DNA of 64,000 nucleotides from NCBI GenBank assembly GCA_963695555.1, contig CAVOGR010000004.1, forward strand, positions 64,001 through 128,000, given 5' to 3'. The notes beneath the pieces are model-generated. The model searched no databases. It saw only the letters and a list, made by a program, of their open reading frames with translations, and was not told where the DNA came from. Shown piece by piece: positions 38,920 to 53,093 of the stretch. This stretch comes from an uncultured Gemmatimonadales bacterium. GTDB taxonomy: Bacteria; Gemmatimonadota; Gemmatimonadetes; Gemmatimonadales; GWC2-71-9. The first letter of the stretch is position 1. Every line of letters starts with the position of its first letter. The position numbers and the translations under genes are program-made.

Positions 38920-39617
38920 TGCGTGTGGGGCTCTCGCCGATGGCACATCGGCAGCCAGGCATCGCCGTGGGGGCAGCGGGAACTGTGCTCATTCACCTCG
39001 GTTTCATGCTGTGGCTCTTGCTGGCCGTGACGCCGCAGGTGGAGCTGCCCCCGGTGTATGCCGTGGAGTTGGTGGCGGCTCCCAGACCCGTGCGCCAGGT
39101 ACGGCCGGCGCCCGAGGCCGTCCAGCGCCCCGCCGACCAGCCGGCTCCCGTCGCGCCGACGCCGGAGCCCGCGCCGCCAAAGCCCGAGCCGACCCCGGCG
39201 GCCCCTGTCGCGACGCCCAAGGACCGGGAGCCACCGCCGCGGACCGCCGCCCCGGTGGAGCCGGTCCCGGGTGAGGCCCCGAACACCGGCGTCGACGTCG
39301 CCACGGTCAAGACCCCCGGGCTCGCGTTTCCGTATCCCGAGTATTTGCGGAACATCGTGACCCAGGTGTATCGACGGTGGGACCGGCCGCGGAGCAAATC
39401 GGGGCTCCAAGCGGAAATCTTCTTCCTCATCTCTAGGGACGGAAGCGTGCGTGAAATGCGGTTTATCAACCAGTCCGGCAATTTCTCGTTTGACCTGGGT
39501 GCGCAGGGCGCGATCGAAGCCGCCGGCAACGCAAACGCCTTCGGCCCCCTGCCGGACGGCTTCGAGAACGACGTGTTGCCGGTTAGTTTCTTCTTCACGC
39601 CGAGGCCTGCACAATGA
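38919..39617 (+). CDS. tolA: TolA/TonB-like energy transducer
   Basis: TM segment with conserved His (TVLIHLG), Pro-rich linker, C-terminal domain SGNFSFDLGAQGAIE..FGPLP; alternative start ATG 38940. Confidence 0.8.
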   Translation: MRVGLSPMAHRQPGIAVGAAGTVLIHLGFMLWLLLAVTPQVELPPVYAVELVAAPRPVRQVRPAPEAVQRPADQPAPVAPTPEPAPPKPEPTPAAPVATPKDREPPPRTAAPVEPVPGEAPNTGVDVATVKTPGLAFPYPEYLRNIVTQVYRRWDRPRSKSGLQAEIFFLISRDGSVREMRFINQSGNFSFDLGAQGAIEAAGNANAFGPLPDGFENDVLPVSFFFTPRPAQ

Positions 39618-40894
39618 GGTGGCTTGGCGCGGTCGCGGCGGCCGTGCTGGTGGCGGGCACTGCGTCAGCGCAGGACTCCATTCCACCGGCGGACCAGGGC
39701 GTGCGGGTCGGTATTACCTACACTCCCGGGGTGCGCCCGCGACTCCTGGTGATGCCGGGCACGGGCTTCGATTCGGTCCGTGCCATTCTGAAGCGCGATT
39801 TGGATTACAGCGATCGCTTCGAGATGCTCGTGCTCGAGGACAACGGCTCGGGCTCGGGGGCCGTCAACTACGGGCTCTATGCCGCGCTCGGGGCCCAATA
39901 CGGCGTGGAGGTCTCGGCGGCGGGTGCGGCGATCAAGCTCCGGCTCCATGACTTTACCCGGGCCGAGGTCATCAACGAGCAGGCCTTCGTGTTCTCGGCT
40001 TTCGATTCGCCGGCGTTCCGAATGGAGGCGCACCGTGCCGCGGACGAAGTGGTCCGGTGGGTAACCGGAACACCGGGGATCGCGGCCACGCGCCTCCTGT
40101 ATGTGGGATCCGGCCGCGTGTACCGGGTTGACAGCGACGGCGCGAACATCCAGGCGTTGACGCCCGGCGAGGATCAGGCACTCTCGCCGGTCTGGGCACC
40201 AGACGGCGCCTCCTTCGCCTACACCCGGTTTGACGAGGGTCGGGGGGCAATCCTGATCCGGAACCTCAACGGCGGCGCCCCGATCACGGTGCCATCGACC
40301 TCGACAAACCTCAATTATGCCGCGGCGTTCGCGCCGGATGGAAGAAACCTGGCATTCACCCGATCCGACGAGAGCGGTACGGACATTTTCGTGGCGAACG
40401 TCGCGGACCGGTGCTGCGTCCGGCGCTTGACCGTGGGTCGCTACGCAGATAATCTATCACCGACATATTCGCCCGACGGCAACCGGATCGCCTTCGTCTC
40501 AACGCGCGCCGGCCCGCCGCAGATCTACGTGATGGCGGCCGAAGGGACCGACCAGGAGCTCCTCGCCCCCTTCGACTTTGGGGTGACCGGCTCCTCCAAC
40601 GGCCCCGAGTGGTCTCCCGACGGGGCGAGCGTGGCCTTTCATCGGGAAGTCGACCGGAGTTCCCAGATCTTCGTGCTCGATGTGGCCACCCGGCGTGCGC
40701 GGCAGCTCACTTCCGCCGGGCGCAATACCGACCCCACCTGGGCACCGGATGGTCGCCACCTTACATTTGTATCGGATCGGAGTGGTCAACGGCAGCTGTG
40801 GGTGATTGATACCGAAACGGGACGGGTACGGCAGCTTCATACCCCGACGTTCGCTCGCCTGCCGGCCTGGTCTCGTTGGCTGGTGCAACCGTAG
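39614..40894 (+). CDS. tolB: TolB beta-propeller protein
   Basis: Signal peptide ASA|Q; RDLDYSDRF, HRAADEV, repeated PD40 units (P.WSPDG). Confidence 0.9.
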   Translation: MRWLGAVAAAVLVAGTASAQDSIPPADQGVRVGITYTPGVRPRLLVMPGTGFDSVRAILKRDLDYSDRFEMLVLEDNGSGSGAVNYGLYAALGAQYGVEVSAAGAAIKLRLHDFTRAEVINEQAFVFSAFDSPAFRMEAHRAADEVVRWVTGTPGIAATRLLYVGSGRVYRVDSDGANIQALTPGEDQALSPVWAPDGASFAYTRFDEGRGAILIRNLNGGAPITVPSTSTNLNYAAAFAPDGRNLAFTRSDESGTDIFVANVADRCCVRRLTVGRYADNLSPTYSPDGNRIAFVSTRAGPPQIYVMAAEGTDQELLAPFDFGVTGSSNGPEWSPDGASVAFHREVDRSSQIFVLDVATRRARQLTSAGRNTDPTWAPDGRHLTFVSDRSGQRQLWVIDTETGRVRQLHTPTFARLPAWSRWLVQP

Positions 40895-40931
40895 ATGTAG
40901 TCCCTCATCCATCAAAGTTATGGAGCCCTTC

Positions 40932-41525
40932 ATGAATCGCTCATCGATACTCCTTGCCACTCTCGTGGTGGCCCTTACAGCATGCGGTGGCACGCCTGAG
41001 CCGGAACCGCCGGCCCCCGTGGTGGACAGCATGGCCATCCGAGAGCAAGCGCGGCGCGATTCGATTGAGGCCGCCCGGCTCGCCCGTGAAGCGGCGGAGC
41101 GGGCCCGGCTCGAGGCCGAGCGGCGAGCTCGGGAAGAGGCGGAACGCGCGCGTGCGGCTCTCATGGCCGACCTGAACGCCATGATCAACTTCGACTTCGA
41201 TCGATCGGACATCCGGTCGGTGGACATGGCCAAGCTGGACCGGAAGGCCGCGATCCTCGCCGCCAACCCCGGAGTGCGGCTCCGCATTGCCGGCCATTGC
41301 GACGAGCGCGGTTCGGACGAGTACAATCTCGCGCTGGGCAACCGGCGGGCCTCGTCAGCCAAGCGGTACCTGGTAAACAAGGGGGTCGACGCCTCGCGCA
41401 TCGAGATCGTGTCCTTTGGCGAGGAGCGCCCGCTCGACGCCGGGCACACGGAAAGCGCGTGGGAGCGGAACCGGCGGTCTGAGTTCGAGCTCACGGCCGG
41501 TGGCGCGACGCTGGTAGCGCCGTAG
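40932..41525 (+). CDS. pal: peptidoglycan-associated lipoprotein Pal
   Basis: Lipobox LTA|C; FDFDRSDI, GHCDERGSDEYNLALGNRRA, SFGEERP, NRR. Confidence 0.95.
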   Translation: MNRSSILLATLVVALTACGGTPEPEPPAPVVDSMAIREQARRDSIEAARLAREAAERARLEAERRAREEAERARAALMADLNAMINFDFDRSDIRSVDMAKLDRKAAILAANPGVRLRIAGHCDERGSDEYNLALGNRRASSAKRYLVNKGVDASRIEIVSFGEERPLDAGHTESAWERNRRSEFELTAGGATLVAP

Positions 41526-42301
41526 TGCGTGTTCGCATCGGTGTTCTCGGAATCCTCGCGGCCACGGCCGCTCTGGGCGGCTGTGCGCTCAAGAGCGACG
41601 TGCGCCGCGTGGAAACCGAGGTCGCACTGCTCAAGGCGGAATCCGCCCAACGGGATTCCGCCGCCGCGACGCGATTGGTGGAGCTGATGACCCGGCAGCA
41701 GCAGATGCTCGACTCGTTGGTGGCCCACCAGCGGGCGTTGACCAGTGCCCGGGGCGAGCTGTCCGGCGAGCATTACATCATTCAACAGCTGCTGGTGCAA
41801 GTTCAGGAGTTGACCGGTCAAAGCCAACAGCGGCTGAGCGAGCTGCGGGCCCAACTGGAAAGCGAACGGGCCGCGCCCGCAGTACCGGCGGAGGGTGCGG
41901 CCGGGGTGGACGTGCCCGCGCCCACCGGTCCGTCGGCCGAGCAGATGTATCAGGTCTCGGTGGCGCAACTGAGGCGGGGCAGTCTGGGAACGGCGCGCCT
42001 CGGCTTTCGGCAGTTGATTCAGACCTATCCCCAGGACGAACGGGTTCCCGACGCGCTCTATTTCATTGGCGAGAGCTACTCCGCGCAACCGGATTCTGCC
42101 GCGCAGTACTACACTACGGTTGTACGGGACCACCCACGCTCGCCGCGGGCGTCATCGGCCCTCTACAAGCTCGGATTGCTCGCCGAGCAGCGGCAGGACC
42201 CCGCGGAGGCGGGGGCGTTGTATCGTCGGGTGGTTGATCAGTATCCCACATCCGATGCCGCCTCCCTCGCCCGAGATCGACTCCGCGCACTAGGTCAGTA
42301 G
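41525..42301 (+). CDS. cpoB: CpoB/YbgF tol-pal-associated TPR protein
   Basis: N-terminal coiled coil, C-terminal TPRs (PDALYFIGES, SALYKLG, YPTSDAA); follows pal. Confidence 0.88.
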   Translation: MRVRIGVLGILAATAALGGCALKSDVRRVETEVALLKAESAQRDSAAATRLVELMTRQQQMLDSLVAHQRALTSARGELSGEHYIIQQLLVQVQELTGQSQQRLSELRAQLESERAAPAVPAEGAAGVDVPAPTGPSAEQMYQVSVAQLRRGSLGTARLGFRQLIQTYPQDERVPDALYFIGESYSAQPDSAAQYYTTVVRDHPRSPRASSALYKLGLLAEQRQDPAEAGALYRRVVDQYPTSDAASLARDRLRALGQ

Positions 42302-42328
42302 CCGGTCCACTCCCCACCCTCGTCCGCG

Positions 42329-45300
42329 ATGACCAGCCCCGCAGGCGAGATGCCCTTCCTCGACCACCTCGAGGAGCTCCGCGTCCGCATTTTCAAAGTG
42401 CTGGCGGCGGTGGTCGTTGGTGTGGTTGTGGGGTTTTGGGTGGTGCAGCGGTTCAAGGTCATCGCTATTCTGAAGCAGCCAATCGAGCCCTATCTCCCCT
42501 CGGGAAAGCTGACCGTGCTGAGCCCTACCGAGCCGATACTCATCGTGCTCAAGCTGGCGCTCGTGGTCGGTCTCGTGCTTGCCTCGCCCGTCATCATCTA
42601 CCAAGTATGGGCGTTTCTCTCTCCCGCACTCTACGCTCGCGAGAAGCGGGCCCTCATTCCGGGGCTGGTGGTGGGGTTGTTCCTGTTCCTCGTCGGGGCC
42701 GCGGGCGGGTTCTTGGTGATCGTGCCGGCGGCGTTACGCATTTTGCTGAGTATCGAGCCGGACACGTTGCAGACGATGATCACGTTCGGGTTTTACTTCA
42801 GCTTCGTCACTCAGCTGTCACTGGCCATGGGGGCGTCGTTCGAGCTTCCGCTGCTCCTCATGCTCCTCACCTGGCTTGGCGTGGTGACGCCGGCCAAACT
42901 GCGCCGCTTCCGCCGCTTTGCGCTCGTGCTCGCCGCGCTGTTGGGTGCGCTGCTCACGCCGGCAGACGTCACCTCAATGGTGATCCTCACCAGTATCCTC
43001 GTGGTGCTCTACGAGGTGGGGGTGCTCGGCTCGGTGCTCGTGGCGAAACGTCGGGCGCGCACGACTGGGGGACCAGGTGCCTTGTTGGTGGTTGGCTTGT
43101 TGCTGACCGCGGGCTCGTTGTCCGCGCAAGTGCCGACCAAACCGCCGCTGGTGCGCCCGCCCAAGACTGCGCGGACGCCCACCGATACCGTGACCGGGGC
43201 GCCCTTGCCACAGCCTGGCCAAGCCCTCGATACCGCTAGCGCCCGGCGGGTGGGGCTCCCGACCGGCCCTACCCGGCAATTCGCCCAGCCGGATTCGATG
43301 GTGCAGGCCTTGCTCGCGCGCCCCGGATTCAGGGTGACACGCTATAGCGCCGACACGGCCACCCTCTTCGCAGCTGAGCGGCGCATGCTGCTCGATGGAC
43401 GAGCCCTGACCGAGCGTGAGGGCACGACCCTCGAGGCGGATCACATCCGGTATCGGGACGCCGAGTGCCTACTCGATGCGTCCGGCGATCCTCGGCTGTT
43501 CGACGCGGGAAGCGTGTTGGTGGGGGAAGGGATCGGGTACAACACCTGTACGCGGCGCGGCTTCGTCACGAATGCGTTGACGAGTTTTCCTGAGGGATCC
43601 ACCGTGTGGTTCCTGCGGGGGAACATCGCCCAGGACTCCAGTTCGAGCCGGATCTACGCCGCGTCGAGCGAGATCACGAGCTGTGATCTTCCGGAGCCAC
43701 ACTACCACTTTGCCGCGCGGGAAGTGAAGTGGATCTCGAAGAATGTTCTGGTGGCCCGTCCCGCCGTGCTTTACATCAGCGACGTCCCGGTCCTGTGGCT
43801 CCCATTCGTGTTCCAGGACACCCGGCCGGGGCGACGATCCGGCATTCTCGTTCCGCAATTCGGTCTCAACGATCTGGTCCGGACCTCCGGCGGCTACAGC
43901 CGCCAGGTGACCAACGTCGGATACTACTGGGCACCGAACGACTACATCGACATCACCGGGCGGCTCGACTGGTACTCCGATCGGTATCTCCAGCTGGGCC
44001 TTGCCGGCCGATATCGGTGGCTGAACCGGTTTGCCAACGGGGAGATCGCGTACAGTAATCAGCGGGAGAGCGGCGGCGCGTCGTCGACCAGCATCCGCTG
44101 GCTCCACCAGCAATCGTTCGACCTGACCACGTCGGTGAACTTGAGCTTCAACTACGTCAGCAACACCACCATTACGAGCAGGAACGCCATCGACCCGCTG
44201 CTCAACACCCAGCAGATCACCAGTGCGCTCAATCTGTCCAAGCGCTATCGGTGGGGGACCGTGACGCTCGGCGGCAATCGGCGGCAGAGCCTGTCCGACA
44301 ACAGCACCACCACCCAGTTTCCCGCCATTACGATCTCTCCGAAGCCGTTGGACATCGCGTCTGATATCACGTGGTCGCCGTCGTTGTCGTTCGTCCAGAA
44401 TCGGGCTTCCAATACGCCAGGCGGGACCGTGTTGATTGCCCGAGCGGGCGGCGGGCTGGATTCTCTGACCCTCACCGGATCGAGTCGCACGACGTCCGTC
44501 TCGGTCGCCACACCGTTTCGGATCGGCTCATTCAATTGGCAAAACACCCTAAGCCTGAATGACCGAAAGAACGAGGGACGCATCGTCGAGACCTTCCGAG
44601 TGCCCGATCCGGGCTCGTCCAACCCGGCGGACTCACTCACAGTTAGCCGGGTGACCACGGGAGACTTCGAGACCGGAATCGATTGGACGACCGGCATCAA
44701 TCTGCCCGTCCTCTTGCGGCGGACCTGGAAGTTGCAACCGGTGCTCGGGATCGCGAACACCACCGGCGGTCCCTTCCTGTTGCGGAATCGCCGGACCGGG
44801 GGGGACTTCGTAAGTCAGGGTAAGCGCTTCGCGCTGGTGCTCAACGTGACGCCAACGTTGTTCGGTTTCCTCCCGGGGTTCGGACCGCTCTCCCGCATCC
44901 GGCACAGTATCTCTCCCATCATCTCCTACTCGTACAGCCCAAAGGCCACCATTCCCGAGGACTACGCCCGCGCCATCACCCCGGAGGGACAAGCGCCGCG
45001 GCGGACGAGCGACGCGGCTCAGCGCCTGAGCATCGGATTGTCCCAAAATTTCGAAGGCAAGACCCGCCCGGCCCCGGGAGACACCAGCGACACGCCCGCG
45101 ACTCGGAAACTCCGTCTGCTGAGCATCGCGACGAGCCCCATCGTCTACGACTTCGAGCAGGCCAAGAAGCCTGGCCGGACGGGGTGGGTAACATCGACCC
45201 TCACCAATACGTTCCAAACCGATCTCCTGCCCAGCTTCAGTCTGAGCATGACCCATGACCTGTGGCGTGGAGCGGTCGGAACAGACACGGCCAAATTCGA

Positions 45301-45835
45301 TCCCTTCCTGCAAAACGTGAACATGAGCTTCGCGCTCTCCACCCGGACAGTTCGGTCATTTCTCGGACTGTTCGGGTTAGGCAGCGGAAGCGCAGCCCAG
45401 GAAGGCGACGAGGAGCCGCCGCCCAGCTACCTGGCTCAATCCGGCCGAGGGTTGGGCCGGACCGGAGCCTTCAACACCGATATGCCGGAAGGCGGCGCCC
45501 GGCGGCCCTTCTCGGCGAACGTCAATTTTTCGTTGTCGCGCGTCAGACCGCTTCCGGGAGCGACCTCATCGGTGGCGGATCGCCAGAACCTGGGATTCAG
45601 CACCAGCTTCTCCCCGACGCCGTTCTGGGGGGTTTCGTGGTCGACGCAATACAACATTACCGACAAGAAGTTCGAGTCCCAGATCGTGCGCTTGGAGCGG
45701 GACCTACACGACTGGCGGGCCCGCTTCGAATTCATCCGCAACGCCAACGGCAACTTCGCCTTCTTCTTCTCGATCTACCTCACCAGCCTGCCCGATCTGA
45801 AGTTCGACTACGACCAGCGTACGATCTCGAACTGA
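42329..45835 (+). CDS. tatC: TatC (aa 1-~239) fused in frame, via an internal signal-peptide-like segment, to an LptD-like outer-membrane beta-barrel (aa ~267-1168)
   Basis: TatC motifs MPFLDHLEELR, PTE, YQVWAFLSPALYAREK, FELP, LTPAD, LYE. LptD-type motifs TSCDLPEPHYHF, LYISDVPVLWLPF, RSGILVPQFG, GYYWAPNDY, RDLHDW. No stop codon between the two parts. Confidence 0.85.
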   Translation: MTSPAGEMPFLDHLEELRVRIFKVLAAVVVGVVVGFWVVQRFKVIAILKQPIEPYLPSGKLTVLSPTEPILIVLKLALVVGLVLASPVIIYQVWAFLSPALYAREKRALIPGLVVGLFLFLVGAAGGFLVIVPAALRILLSIEPDTLQTMITFGFYFSFVTQLSLAMGASFELPLLLMLLTWLGVVTPAKLRRFRRFALVLAALLGALLTPADVTSMVILTSILVVLYEVGVLGSVLVAKRRARTTGGPGALLVVGLLLTAGSLSAQVPTKPPLVRPPKTARTPTDTVTGAPLPQPGQALDTASARRVGLPTGPTRQFAQPDSMVQALLARPGFRVTRYSADTATLFAAERRMLLDGRALTEREGTTLEADHIRYRDAECLLDASGDPRLFDAGSVLVGEGIGYNTCTRRGFVTNALTSFPEGSTVWFLRGNIAQDSSSSRIYAASSEITSCDLPEPHYHFAAREVKWISKNVLVARPAVLYISDVPVLWLPFVFQDTRPGRRSGILVPQFGLNDLVRTSGGYSRQVTNVGYYWAPNDYIDITGRLDWYSDRYLQLGLAGRYRWLNRFANGEIAYSNQRESGGASSTSIRWLHQQSFDLTTSVNLSFNYVSNTTITSRNAIDPLLNTQQITSALNLSKRYRWGTVTLGGNRRQSLSDNSTTTQFPAITISPKPLDIASDITWSPSLSFVQNRASNTPGGTVLIARAGGGLDSLTLTGSSRTTSVSVATPFRIGSFNWQNTLSLNDRKNEGRIVETFRVPDPGSSNPADSLTVSRVTTGDFETGIDWTTGINLPVLLRRTWKLQPVLGIANTTGGPFLLRNRRTGGDFVSQGKRFALVLNVTPTLFGFLPGFGPLSRIRHSISPIISYSYSPKATIPEDYARAITPEGQAPRRTSDAAQRLSIGLSQNFEGKTRPAPGDTSDTPATRKLRLLSIATSPIVYDFEQAKKPGRTGWVTSTLTNTFQTDLLPSFSLSMTHDLWRGAVGTDTAKFDPFLQNVNMSFALSTRTVRSFLGLFGLGSGSAAQEGDEEPPPSYLAQSGRGLGRTGAFNTDMPEGGARRPFSANVNFSLSRVRPLPGATSSVADRQNLGFSTSFSPTPFWGVSWSTQYNITDKKFESQIVRLERDLHDWRARFEFIRNANGNFAFFFSIYLTSLPDLKFDYDQRTISN

Positions 45836-45876
45836 TGTCCTCGCCAAGTGACATCCGTTCCCCGGGCTGACTTACG

Positions 45877-45931
45877 CAAGTGCTTGTCCTCAAAGGATCT
45901 ATGGCTCCCGCCGGTCTGGCACGCTCTCTGC
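45877..45931 (+). promoter_or_regulatory. sigma54 (-24/-12) promoter with upstream IHF-like site
   Basis: TGGCACGCTCTCTGC at 45917-45931 (one mismatch to TGGCACG-N4-TTGC); CAAGTGCTTG (CAA-N4-TTG) at 45877-45886. Confidence 0.6.
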
Positions 45932-45967
45932 CATAGGTTTGGATGGACTCCCTCCTCGGAGATACTC

Positions 45968-47101
45968 ATGCGACGCTTGTTGCTCGCCTTGCCCATACTT
46001 CTCGTGATGGCATGTTCGGGAGACGACACCGTCTTCGGTGGCGGCGGCACGGTCGCCGCTCCACAAAACCTCTTCTACGTCGTTGAGCCCAACGGCACTG
46101 GGAATTCTCCAACCGGTATCCTGCTGCGTTGGGACGACGATCCCGACCCCGATCTGGCGGTCTGGCATGTGTATTCCCGGGGGAGCAGCTCGGGCACCTT
46201 CGGGCTCCGTGGCTCCACCACTTCCAATTCATTCCATGATCAGGGCGTGCCGCACCTCGAGTACTACGTGACCGCTGAAGATCTGGACGGATTCGAATCC
46301 GGCCCCAGCAACGTGATCACGGTCGATGAGCGTCTCACGTTGCAGGCACCCAGTTCGCTGTCCAGCACCTCGCTCAATGGCGCCATTGCCCTCACCTGGT
46401 CCGATAACGCGTTTACCTCGGATCCGGCGGGCTTCAGCCAGTACCGCGTGTACAGCGTGGGATACGACCTCGATGCCGGATTGTGCGACCTCGACTGGGC
46501 GCTGGAAGGCACCACGGTCGCACCGGAGTTCGTGGCCGGCGCGCTCCTCAATGGCGCCCCCCGGTGTTTCGGCGTCTCCGCTGTGAGCGTGGAGGGCTGG
46601 GAGAGCCTCTGGTCTCCGATCCGGGACGATACGCCCCGACCCGACGCCAGAAACGTGGTGGTGTGGACCAGTCAAGCTGATGTCACCCAAAGCGGATTCC
46701 GCTTCTGGCGCGACCTGAACCTCGACGGGTTGGCTCAACTGTCCGAACTTGGCCGGATAGGGGCCGGCACCGCGCCGGATATCGACTTCTCATTTGAGCG
46801 GAATCCTTCGGGCCTGGTCTTCTTCCGGCCAGTCAGGCTCGGGACCGGTGTCCTCTCGGTCGGTCAAGTCGCCGATCTGACCAGCATCGACTTCGCGCCC
46901 AATGCCGCATACGGCACGGGCCAGATCGAGGCGCTTCCAGGTAATGGATACATCTTCGAGATGGACGGCGGCGACGGTTTCGCCCGCTACGGTGCCATCC
47001 GCGCGACCCACGTGGGTCAGAATTTCGTGATCCTCGACTGGGCTTTCCAGACCGACCCCGGCAACCCGGAACTCCTGGTTGGGGGTATCGGCGGCGGCTG
47101 A
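45968..47101 (+). CDS. lipoprotein with two fibronectin-III-like domains and an unassigned C-terminal beta domain
   Basis: Lipobox VMA|C; APQNL...LRWD...YYVTAEDLDGFESGPSN and APSSL...LTWS...VSAVSVEGWESLWS FN3 patterns; SD GGAG. Confidence 0.75.
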   Translation: MRRLLLALPILLVMACSGDDTVFGGGGTVAAPQNLFYVVEPNGTGNSPTGILLRWDDDPDPDLAVWHVYSRGSSSGTFGLRGSTTSNSFHDQGVPHLEYYVTAEDLDGFESGPSNVITVDERLTLQAPSSLSSTSLNGAIALTWSDNAFTSDPAGFSQYRVYSVGYDLDAGLCDLDWALEGTTVAPEFVAGALLNGAPRCFGVSAVSVEGWESLWSPIRDDTPRPDARNVVVWTSQADVTQSGFRFWRDLNLDGLAQLSELGRIGAGTAPDIDFSFERNPSGLVFFRPVRLGTGVLSVGQVADLTSIDFAPNAAYGTGQIEALPGNGYIFEMDGGDGFARYGAIRATHVGQNFVILDWAFQTDPGNPELLVGGIGGG

Positions 47102-52847: not shown

Positions 52848-53093
52848 ATGGGCATCGGGAACTTGGGATTCGGTGAAATTCTCATCATTCTGGTGGTGCT
52901 GCTCCTCGTGTTCGGGGCTCGTCGCTTGCCGGAAATCGGGGCGTCCTTGGGGAAGGGGATCCGCGAATTCAAGCGAAGCATCACGGAAACGAGCGATGCG
53001 GTGACGCGGGGCAACGATCAGGAGCCGCCGGCTCGACAAATCGATGCGCAGGCATCACCGACGGACGGTGAGCCGAAGCGCTTGTCCCAATAG
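52848..53093 (+). CDS. tatA: twin-arginine translocase subunit TatA
   Basis: GFGEILIILVVLLLVFGARRLPEIGASLGKGIREFK. Confidence 0.95.
   Translation: MGIGNLGFGEILIILVVLLLVFGARRLPEIGASLGKGIREFKRSITETSDAVTRGNDQEPPARQIDAQASPTDGEPKRLSQ

Follow-up and report, generated by a model that had tools for sequence, protein, structure and literature searches.

A conserved TatC-LptD gene fusion in Gemmatimonadota and its probable separation at an internal signal peptide

One bacterial gene can reportedly give rise to two envelope proteins. The cytochrome b-c1 precursor FbcH of Bradyrhizobium japonicum is said to be processed at an internal signal, which yields two separate proteins. The reading frame described here has the same layout as FbcH, in that a polytopic inner-membrane protein with a cytoplasmic C-terminus comes first, an internal signal peptide next and an exported protein last. 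The two differ in what is exported: the downstream part of FbcH is a membrane-anchored periplasmic cytochrome, whereas here it is a beta-barrel of the outer membrane, about 900 residues long. In addition, the products here serve two unrelated machines, Tat and Lpt, and the cleavage is a prediction.

Another natural N-terminal fusion partner of LptD is found in the Rhodocyclaceae, where PagP and LptD form a two-barrel fusion (PNAS 2021, PMC8346858). There, both barrels lie in the outer membrane and act in a single LPS pathway, and they are considered to remain joined. By contrast, the partner of LptD described here is an inner-membrane protein, and separation is therefore required. A literature search found no paper on a TatC-LptD fusion.

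A fused frame and its relatives

The window, the whole stretch of 64,000 nucleotides that was analysed, contains one open frame of 1168 codons plus a stop, which starts with ATG and encodes both TatC and LptD (Table 1). An uninterrupted frame of this kind had been proposed in a sequence-only reading of the DNA, and it is borne out by the ORF listing and by matches to both domains. The same reading placed it after tol-pal, in agreement with the TolB-like, Pal-like and CpoB/YbgF-like ORFs that lie upstream on the same strand.

Table 1. Positions of the fused frame, its parts and other genes, numbered within the window
Feature	Position	Strand	Evidence
TolB-like ORF, PD40 repeats	39614-40894	+	ORF listing, Pfam
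Pal-like OmpA-family ORF	40806-41525 (start as listed; true start uncertain)	+	ORF listing, Pfam
CpoB/YbgF-like TPR protein	41525-42301	+	ORF listing, Pfam
Fused tatC-lptD ORF	42329..45835	+	ORF listing; PF00902 and PF19838 in homologs; no indel inside in contigs of 4 public runs
TatC domain, residues 1-239, last element TM6 (LYEVGVLGSVLVA)	42329..43045	+	PF00902, TIGR00945, 4B4A alignment
GTG codons 236 (43034) and 238 (43040), possible internal starts before the basic cluster	43034..43042	+	Codon list
Internal signal peptide, residues 240-266; predicted SPase I site A266|Q267	43046..43126	+	Motif; homology to unfused LptD signal
Pro-rich, mostly disordered N-terminus of mature LptD, residues 267-336	43127..43336	+	AlphaFold; unfused relatives
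Periplasmic beta-jellyroll-like domain, model residues 71-231 (predicted)	43337..43819	+	AlphaFold strand pattern; Foldseek
Large outer-membrane beta-barrel, model residues 260-899 (predicted)	43904..45823	+	AlphaFold, Foldseek, PF19838 stretches
TatA/B-family gene, the only one detected in the genome; presumed partner of TatC	52863-52997 (contig 116863-116997)	+	Profile search

At the join, where the sequence-only reading had left room for an assembly error, contigs from four public runs pass from one domain to the other without indels. One of these runs is an RNA library, the contig of which covers 42787-43743 with no gaps. Among the differences listed for the public-run contigs, the indels (42310 and 45907) both lie outside the ORF, and eight of the nine translated substitutions (42820-43237) are synonymous; stretches that lack contig cover in three of the four runs are uninformative. 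The genome itself is a draft in 14 contigs and is 87% complete. Profile searches of this 87% found no second TatC, LptD_2 or PF04453 LptD, so that the search for another tatC or lptD copy, which had been proposed earlier, came out in favour of the fused frame as the sole copy detected.

How widespread is the fusion? Two-domain relatives are abundant: PF00902 and PF19838 occur together in 120 of 120 homologs among the matches listed, at 59-99% identity. Within the family of Gemmatimonadota to which the window belongs, a frame of at least 1000 aa is present in 109 of the 138 TatC-bearing genomes. A further nine genomes have frames of 514-871 aa, and the one inspected (locus L037) is fused and is ended by a contig edge. 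Across the phylum, an lptD homolog lies directly downstream of tatC on the same strand at 27 of 29 sampled loci, and the other two loci stop at contig ends.

The unfused tatC-lptD pairs of other Gemmatimonadota, which are often translationally coupled, share the gene order, an LptD signal with A-x-A|Q and a Pro-rich mature N-terminus with the fused form. However, they have a stop codon, often in an RTGA overlap, and a longer acidic TatC tail, both of which the fused form has lost. Among 20 unfused loci with a signal peptide detected by the script, nine show this overlap of the lptD start with the tatC stop. The four fusions from outside the window's family still carry acidic tails of 20-60 aa and retain a start codon at the h-region. 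All stages of gene fusion can be seen together: genes that overlap, young fusions with a tail and a start codon, and old fusions with neither. Fusions have arisen at least three times. The tree within the window's family contains seven state changes, four of which could be either fusion or fission. In this family, the neighbouring and often coupled tatC and lptD would have come into one frame through a deletion where stop and start overlap. The TatC-LptD fusion is genuine and conserved, and it has recurred.

The TatC and LptD parts

The TatC at the N-terminus is complete, as had been read from the sequence. PF00902 (Pfam TatC) matches residues 12-221 (E 4e-58, 197 bits against a cut-off of 25.1) and TIGR00945 matches residues 11-228 with 191.7 bits (cut-off 132.7), while Aquifex TatC 4B4A aligns over residues 8-251 (E 1.2e-47). 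Solved structures show that TatC has six helices and an N-in/C-in topology. The fused TatC resembles stand-alone TatC (Aquifex aeolicus 4B4A and 4HTS; E. coli 9DZZ) in its full-length alignment and in its Pfam and TIGRFAM scores. By contrast, where stand-alone TatC usually has an acidic cytoplasmic tail, the fused form continues into a signal peptide and then a second protein, and after the predicted cleavage the fused TatC would bear an extra hydrophobic C-terminal segment. The twin-arginine signal profile TIGR01409 has one match in the 87% complete genome (23.5 bits, E 3.8e-4).

The second part, about 900 residues that had been assigned to LptD from motifs, matches PF19838 (LptD_2) with an E value of 5.7e-35. 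Matches to NF003358 and NF002997 are weak and far under their cut-offs. The canonical LptD profile PF04453 has no match across the whole genome, and matches in the E. coli and Caulobacter controls. By these profile matches, the LptD of the window belongs to the divergent PF19838 LptD_2 branch. An AlphaFold model of residues 267-1168 (pLDDT 85.8, pTM 0.72) was compared with the PDB using Foldseek: ranks 1-37 are all LptD, the best being 8h1s (E 2.6e-26), and BtuB-type barrels do not begin until rank 38. The LptD matches have target-normalised TM values of 0.47-0.62, and full-length LptD chains were aligned across about 860-950 columns; identity to the solved LptDs is only 9-14%. On the evidence of the model, the C-terminal part appears to have an LptD fold with a jellyroll and a very large barrel, which strengthens the earlier assignment.

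The jellyroll and very large barrel are shared with the LptD of the LptDE translocon (8H1S, 4Q35, 5IV9, 7OMM, 9KN3). Unlike these proteins, the LptD of the window has a long Pro-rich N-terminus, in which model residues 1-28 have a pLDDT under 50 and the first strand begins at model residue 71. Residues 267-336 contain the conserved motif LDTA.ARR.GLP. The E. coli-type disulfide layout is also missing. E. coli-type LptD has interdomain disulfides; these cannot form here because the LptD has only three Cys residues, 380, 407 and 452, all in its N-terminal part and none near the C-terminus. LptE, LptF/G and LpxC were found in the same genome by profile searches. PF03968 (LptA/LptC/LptD_N) has no match in this genome, which at 87% completeness is not proof of absence, and matches weakly in one distant fused homolog.

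The signal peptide at the join

The join segment reads KRRARTTGGPGALLVVGLLLTAGSLSA|QVPTKPP, with K240 beginning at 43046 and the codons for A266 and Q267 at 43124-43129. It can be divided into an n-region (KRRARTTGGPG), an h-region (ALLVVGLLLTA) and a c-region (GSLSA). In unfused relatives this signal is N-terminal, whereas here it is internal, beginning at residue 240 behind the six TatC helices.

Is the putative cleavage site conserved? The pattern [AGS]|Q follows the h-region in 58/58 fused loci and in 119 of 120 homologs among the matches listed, where Q at +1 is partly so by construction, because the site finder was anchored on [AGS]Q. QVP follows the predicted site in 88 of these 120 homologs. 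At -1, the 58 fused loci have Ala (50), Gly (7) or Ser (1). At -3 they have Leu (26), Ala (22), Val (6), Ser (2), Gly (1) or Thr (1), and Leu, found in 26 of 58, is a permitted yet not preferred residue. From the last basic residue to the cleavage site, the median distance is 21 in fused and 20 in unfused loci. Signal peptides were judged by a hand-made rule. The finder gave no result in 16 of the 36 unfused loci, mostly distant families with a mature end lacking an initial Q, and at times it chose a start too far upstream (unfused loci L039 and L061). The genome contains a gene for SPase I (PF10502, 154 bits).

These comparisons show that the signal peptide at the join is LptD's own, inherited from an unfused tatC-lptD pair. 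An SPase I-type signal ending at A266, as put forward in the sequence-only reading, is supported by this inheritance and by the conserved motif; cleavage there is predicted. The Pro-rich stretch fared differently. It had been taken for a linker between the two domains, and this was ruled out: the stretch also follows the signal peptide of unfused LptD and so is not specific to the fusion, being the native N-terminus of the mature protein. In the window's family, the junction has been reshaped for an internal signal: the linker has medians of 9.5 aa for length and 0 for acidic residues, and its net charge is +5 (n=70).

By which pathway would LptD be exported? The preference for Sec over Tat expressed earlier was upheld, since the Arg cluster is TatC's own and the signal is internal. 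Tat export through the RR cluster was rejected by reasoning: the cluster follows TM6 and is present in unfused TatC tails too, the signal lies behind helices that are inserted co-translationally, and barrel precursors must remain unfolded. A lipoprotein signal was ruled out, the +1 residue not being Cys.

From one frame to two proteins

The long protein is most likely cleaved to give two ordinary ones, since LptD has kept its own signal peptide at the join. Cleavage of the TatC-LptD precursor by SPase I is the best reading of the locus, and we consider it probable. The six TatC helices would enter the inner membrane and leave a poly-Arg cluster in the cytoplasm at their end. The original Sec signal peptide of LptD would come next and insert N-in/C-out, so that the LptD part, roughly 900 residues, could be threaded via SecYEG into the periplasm. 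Signal peptidase I would then cut after A266 and release mature LptD in the same form as in unfused relatives. The released protein would go on to the outer membrane and pair with LptE, and TatC would keep a C-terminal remnant of 27 residues. Export by Sec, cleavage of the precursor and what becomes of the remnant are all inferred, and a 1:1 stoichiometry of TatC and LptD might follow, as had been suggested.

Alternatively, LptD may be made mainly from an internal start, at the GTG at 43034 or 43040, with its own signal peptide, and the fused chain may be a minor product. The GTG codons named in the sequence-only reading do exist in the window and lie directly before KRRAR; part or all of the LptD of the window could therefore stem from internal initiation, which would yield a textbook signal peptide. 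Translational coupling at the RTGA overlap is the ancestral arrangement, and an ATG or TTG at the h-region has been kept in the four fusions outside the window's family. Moreover, 47 of 58 fused loci have one or more start-type codons before the h-region, a region in which Val and Leu codons are common anyway. However, the GTG starts are not conserved across the family, and among the fused relatives no alignment column holds a conserved start codon. Eleven of the 58 loci have no ATG, GTG or TTG from TM6 to the h-region, and three have none as far as the cleavage site, although lptD is present there solely in the fused frame. In the window's family, deletion has removed the acidic tail of TatC together with the n-region of LptD, so that TatC's own Arg cluster acts as the n-region. 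Ribosomes that translate tatC cannot stop before lptD, and the fused chain is thus made in any case.

Nor does the window have a good Shine-Dalgarno sequence at the right distance. The sole SD-like string (GAGGTGGGGG) is at least 11 nt upstream of the GTG codons, and its presence is dictated by the conserved YEVG codons. A comparison of Shine-Dalgarno sequences as a test of internal initiation was dropped, as the YEVG codons fix the sequence upstream in fused loci and no SD was seen at the start of tatC itself. Some initiation at GTG 236 or 238 is possible in the window. As the main source of LptD, an internal start is unlikely, and it is just as unlikely that the in-frame continuity is a tolerated by-product of the loss of a stop codon.

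Might the two parts stay joined? Pro-rich linkers that span the periplasm are known from TonB and TolA. An uncleaved chain would run from TatC in the inner membrane, across a bridge formed by the Pro-rich stretch of about 70 residues, to the LptD barrel in the outer membrane, and the disordered start of this stretch could in principle reach far. However, the stretch is equally present behind the signal peptide of unfused LptD, and the retention of SPase I-type -1 and -3 residues (in all 58 fused loci and all but one of the 120 homologs listed) would be surprising in a chain that had no need of cleavage. With the c-region counted, about 21 uncharged residues lead up to the site, which is the length of a signal peptide rather than of an anchor and is the same in unfused relatives. 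A permanent tether is accordingly very improbable.

That an assembly or sequencing error erased the stop that separated two ordinary genes, or changed the reading frame between them, as the draft state of the genome and the unfused state of certain relatives might suggest, is ruled out for practical purposes by the agreement of independent contigs from the four public runs, by frames of 1160-1172 aa at 78-87% identity in other assemblies, and by the long frames throughout the window's family.

If SPase I cleaves the precursor as proposed, the locus would be a natural case of one bacterial polypeptide that supplies inner- and outer-membrane proteins to two unrelated envelope machines. It would mean that SPase I is able to process an internal signal behind a protein of six helices, and that a giant barrel that is essential can be produced by this route. 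The fusion also lends itself readily to tests of how internal signal peptides are processed and of whether TatC tolerates a C-terminal helix.

Is the fusion adaptive or merely tolerated? An adaptive role is speculative, and we regard it as doubtful. The TatC helices might serve as an SRP-dependent co-translational leader that brings the aggregation-prone precursor of the 900-residue LptD straight to SecYEG. The remnant might also alter the Tat receptor, as a covalent seventh helix beside TM6, a surface that binds the TatA/TatB helices; this could change receptor assembly in a genome with a single TatA/B gene. Selection would then account for the repeated, independent origin of fusions and for their near-fixation in one family. 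In public records the fused ORFs are named only 'TatC', and lptD consequently seems to be missing from these genomes.

Two proteins in one open reading frame

The fused tatC-lptD gene is a real, conserved natural fusion, in which two neighbouring genes appear to have merged into a putative membrane polyprotein processed by signal peptidase. The sequence-only reading had placed TatC and LptD in a single frame of 1168 codons, with KRRAR, ALLVVGLLLTA and GSLSA/Q267 at the join (the slash marks the predicted cleavage site). The ORF listing and the profile, structure and model matches bear this out, and the description agrees with sequence and coordinates in each checkable detail.

The TatC half matches Pfam TatC at residues 12-221 (E 4e-58) and the TIGR00945 equivalog at residues 11-228 (191.7 bits against a cut-off of 132.7), while the solved structure of Aquifex TatC, 4B4A, aligns with residues 8-251 (E 1.2e-47); the TatC part is complete. 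The join comes after TM6, LYEVGVLGSVLVA. The remainder of the ORF is LptD. It matches PF19838 (LptD_2; E 5.7e-35), and an AlphaFold2 model of residues 267-1168, with a 75-sequence alignment as input (mean pLDDT 85.8, pTM 0.72), has a Pro-rich disordered start, then a jellyroll-like sheet domain, then a very large barrel. Foldseek ranks 1-37 against the PDB were all LptD chains (top 8h1s, E 2.6e-26), and TonB-dependent barrels followed only from rank 38 onward.

Positions of the fused gene and nearby features in the window
Feature	Position	Strand	Remarks
Pal-like OmpA-family ORF	40806-41525	+	listed start is a TTG overlapping the tolB end
C-rich stretch before the tatC ATG	42301-42329		no Shine-Dalgarno-like string
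Fused tatC-lptD ORF	42329..45835	+	1168 aa, ATG start, sole ORF listed there
Join	K240 at 43046; A266/Q267 at 43124-43129	+	KRRARTTGGPG-ALLVVGLLLTA-GSLSA/QVPTKPP
ORF directly 3' of lptD	45848-47101	+	417 aa as listed, no Pfam match
Sole TatA/B gene of the genome	52863-52997		inside the window

The join as an internal signal peptide

What does the join correspond to where the genes are separate? Thirty loci around TatC were sampled across the phylum, and 29 contain TatC by tblastn. An lptD homolog lies directly 3' on the same strand in 27 of these (24 unfused, 3 fused); the other two run into contig ends. In unfused loci a start codon and the tatC stop often share the string RTGA: ten of the 24 unfused phylum loci, and also L039, L045 and L061 of the window's own family (f1), have a start-type codon at offset -1. 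Of the 20 unfused loci with a script-found signal peptide, nine have that peptide starting at this offset. Unfused LptDs carry an ordinary N-terminal signal peptide ending A-x-A/Q, followed by a Pro-rich stretch (...FFLPGAALA/QVPTAKP in L033, ...LPLGGAAAA/QGIPTNPP in L024). The "seventh helix" of the earlier reading is therefore LptD's own signal peptide; the Pro-rich part is not a linker but the native N-terminus of mature LptD.

Junction DNA was gathered for fused, unfused and cut loci. In all 58 fused loci analysed, the h-region is followed by an [AGS]/Q site (-1: A50 G7 S1; -3: L26 A22 V6 S2 G1 T1); such a site also occurs in 119 of the 120 database homologs among the matches listed (-1: A113 G4 S2). 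Q at +1 is partly by construction, since the site finder was a manually devised rule keyed to [AGS]Q; it did not work on 16 of the 36 unfused loci, mainly those from distant families. QVP follows the site in 88 of the 120 homologs listed. The signal peptide and its cleavage motif are retained in the fused genes.

TatC has six helices, with N- and C-terminus both cytoplasmic in solved structures. Because both ends are cytoplasmic, a hydrophobic segment after the TatC helices would insert N-in/C-out, like a signal peptide. SecYEG and SecA would translocate the large periplasmic part, SPase I would cleave after A266, LptD would be carried to BAM to assemble with LptE, and residues 240-266 would stay on TatC. 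We infer this route, a Sec-type internal signal peptide cut by SPase I to give free LptD and a TatC remnant, and consider it quite likely. The closest known mechanism is that of Bradyrhizobium japonicum FbcH, reportedly a cytochrome b-c1 precursor.

Could LptD instead be made mainly by internal initiation? An internal GTG start had been put forward as an alternative, and in the window GTG codons 236 and 238 do immediately precede KRRAR; some internal initiation may occur here. However, when all in-frame ATG, GTG and TTG codons were marked from TM6 to the cleavage site, no alignment column held a conserved start codon. Eleven of the 58 fused loci have no start-type codon before the h-region (L030, L031, L036, L050, L056, L057, L067, L083, L090, L092, L094), and L031, L036 and L083 have none up to the cleavage site; in such genomes, rare start codons aside, LptD would come only from the fused chain. 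The start codon is not conserved among the fused loci, and internal initiation is an unlikely main source of LptD. Still more doubtful is an uncleaved tether: the last basic residue lies at a median of 21 (range 17-39) from the site in fused loci versus 20 (15-48) in 20 unfused ones, the geometry of a signal peptide, not of a lengthened membrane anchor.

That the frame stems from sequencing or assembly error is barely conceivable, given that the closest database homolog is 99% identical, that the next three (78-87%) come from other assemblies with frames of 1160-1172 aa, and that contigs of four public runs, aligned to window 41500-46000, are free of indels within the ORF; the two indels listed (42310, 45907) lie outside it. 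The RNA-library run gives a 957-nt contig spanning 42787-43743 without gaps, although contigs cannot prove transcription; contigs of the three DNA runs cross or reach the join. Eight of the nine substitutions translated at 42820-43237 are synonymous, the remaining one being T280A. The run holding the largest number of words is possibly related to the source sample. The two-domain relatives that the sequence-only reading had thought worth seeking were also found: PF00902 and PF19838 co-occur in 120 of 120 homologs among the matches listed (1330 at E <= 0.001 among 8000 scored candidates; 120 listed).

Distribution and repeated origin

In f1, TatC was matched in 138 of 141 sampled genomes, and the open frame surrounding each match was used to class them. 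The frame is >= 1000 aa in 109 genomes and 514-871 aa in nine, of which the one examined (L037) is fused and broken by a contig end; one has a fused join in a 438-aa frame, eight have unfused tatC then lptD (verified in loci), in five the sole TatC is a second, stand-alone paralog, which falls with f2, another family, in the tree, and six are fragments or contig-end cuts. In the 438-aa case (G323:C173, L110) the short frame places an interruption about 200 residues into the lptD part; a frameshift, misassembly or pseudogene formation may account for it. The stand-alone TatC was seen at L051, L081, L108, L109 and L111-L113 (genomes G066, G025, G033, G236, G172, G227, G045), with no lptD downstream at L051, where the locus extends far enough to show this; G045 carries it alongside the fused gene, and in the window's genome only the fused copy was seen.

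In f2, TatC occurs in 113 of 121 genomes, with frames >1000 aa only in G047 and G373; the phylum scan (TatC in 295 of 301 genomes) added G228. Long frames outside f1 among the matches listed (150 of 302 rows) are those of G047, G228 and, in family f4, G180. Two distant homologs, P0193 and P0203, whose identity over the LptD part is 34-35%, are likewise TatC+LptD_2. Unpublished genomes are among the loci counted (G097, L017, unfused; G182, L032; G370, L034; G308, L041, cut) and the phylum-scan and f2 rows (G057, G391, G392); no claim rests solely on them.

How often did the genes fuse? The fusion is recurrent: on a quickly built maximum-likelihood TatC-domain tree (114 rows, 225 columns; junction omitted, 4 cut loci dropped), at least seven changes between fused and unfused states are needed. 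Three are clear from where they sit and from the type of junction (f1, f2 genus g47, f4). Four lie inside f1 (L079; L096+L103; the L039/L061/L053/L069 group; L045), where, with a weak backbone and no inferred root, fusion and fission are indistinguishable; the RTGA overlap, as in other families, suggests that the unfused f1 forms are ancestral. G373 (f2 genus g164, L129), absent from the tree, is a further separate fusion.

From first basic residue to h-region, the linker has a median of 9.5 aa in f1 fusions (n=70) versus 20-60 aa in the four non-f1 fusions compared (L105, L106, L129, L107), with a median of 0 versus 3-12 acidic residues and a net charge of +5 versus -1 to +4; ATG or TTG stands at the h-region start in about 10/70 (read by eye from the list) versus 4/4. 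The junction types are read as three stages: overlapping genes; young fusions that retain a two-gene appearance; and old fusions with a decayed start codon, where the TatC Arg cluster now serves as n-region.

Public records label the fused proteins "TatC" only, and a literature search on TatC-LptD or TatC/LptD fusions, including Gemmatimonad ones, returned solely engineered TatC fusions. A term search of a TatC diversity survey covering one Gemmatimonadetes genome gave neither "fusion" nor "fused" (PMC3827258). A PagP-LptD two-barrel fusion is published; unlike in TatC-LptD, both parts are outer-membrane proteins (PMC8346858). The gene is relevant to research on envelope biogenesis and gene fusion.

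Neighbouring genes and the rest of the genome

As the sequence-only reading had it, the ORF follows tol-pal: TolB-like, Pal-like and CpoB/YbgF-like genes lie 5' on the same strand. In the Pal-like ORF, an internal Met then …LLATLVVALTAC… looks like the genuine lipoprotein start. Since the tatC ATG lacks an upstream Shine-Dalgarno-like string, start arguments of that kind are weak in this organism. The ORF 3' of lptD has an internal Met, then a lipoprotein-like signal (…LLLALPILLVMAC…), and may encode a lipoprotein of the outer membrane that is expressed together with LptD. Its length exceeds that of a typical LptE, and the LptE match sits on another part of the genome.

In the assembly, 87% complete in 14 contigs, TatC and LptD_2 each have a single locus, in both cases within the fused ORF, and neither PF04453 LptD nor PF03968 has a match. 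Both halves are therefore the only detected copies, and the cell most likely needs both genes. LptE and LptF/G are present, with one SPase I, one LpxC and one twin-arginine signal match. The LpxC match (L064, G000:C13:3531-4337) lies within a 512-aa open frame, about twice LpxC length, which may be a second fusion (e.g. with FabZ) or merely a long open frame.
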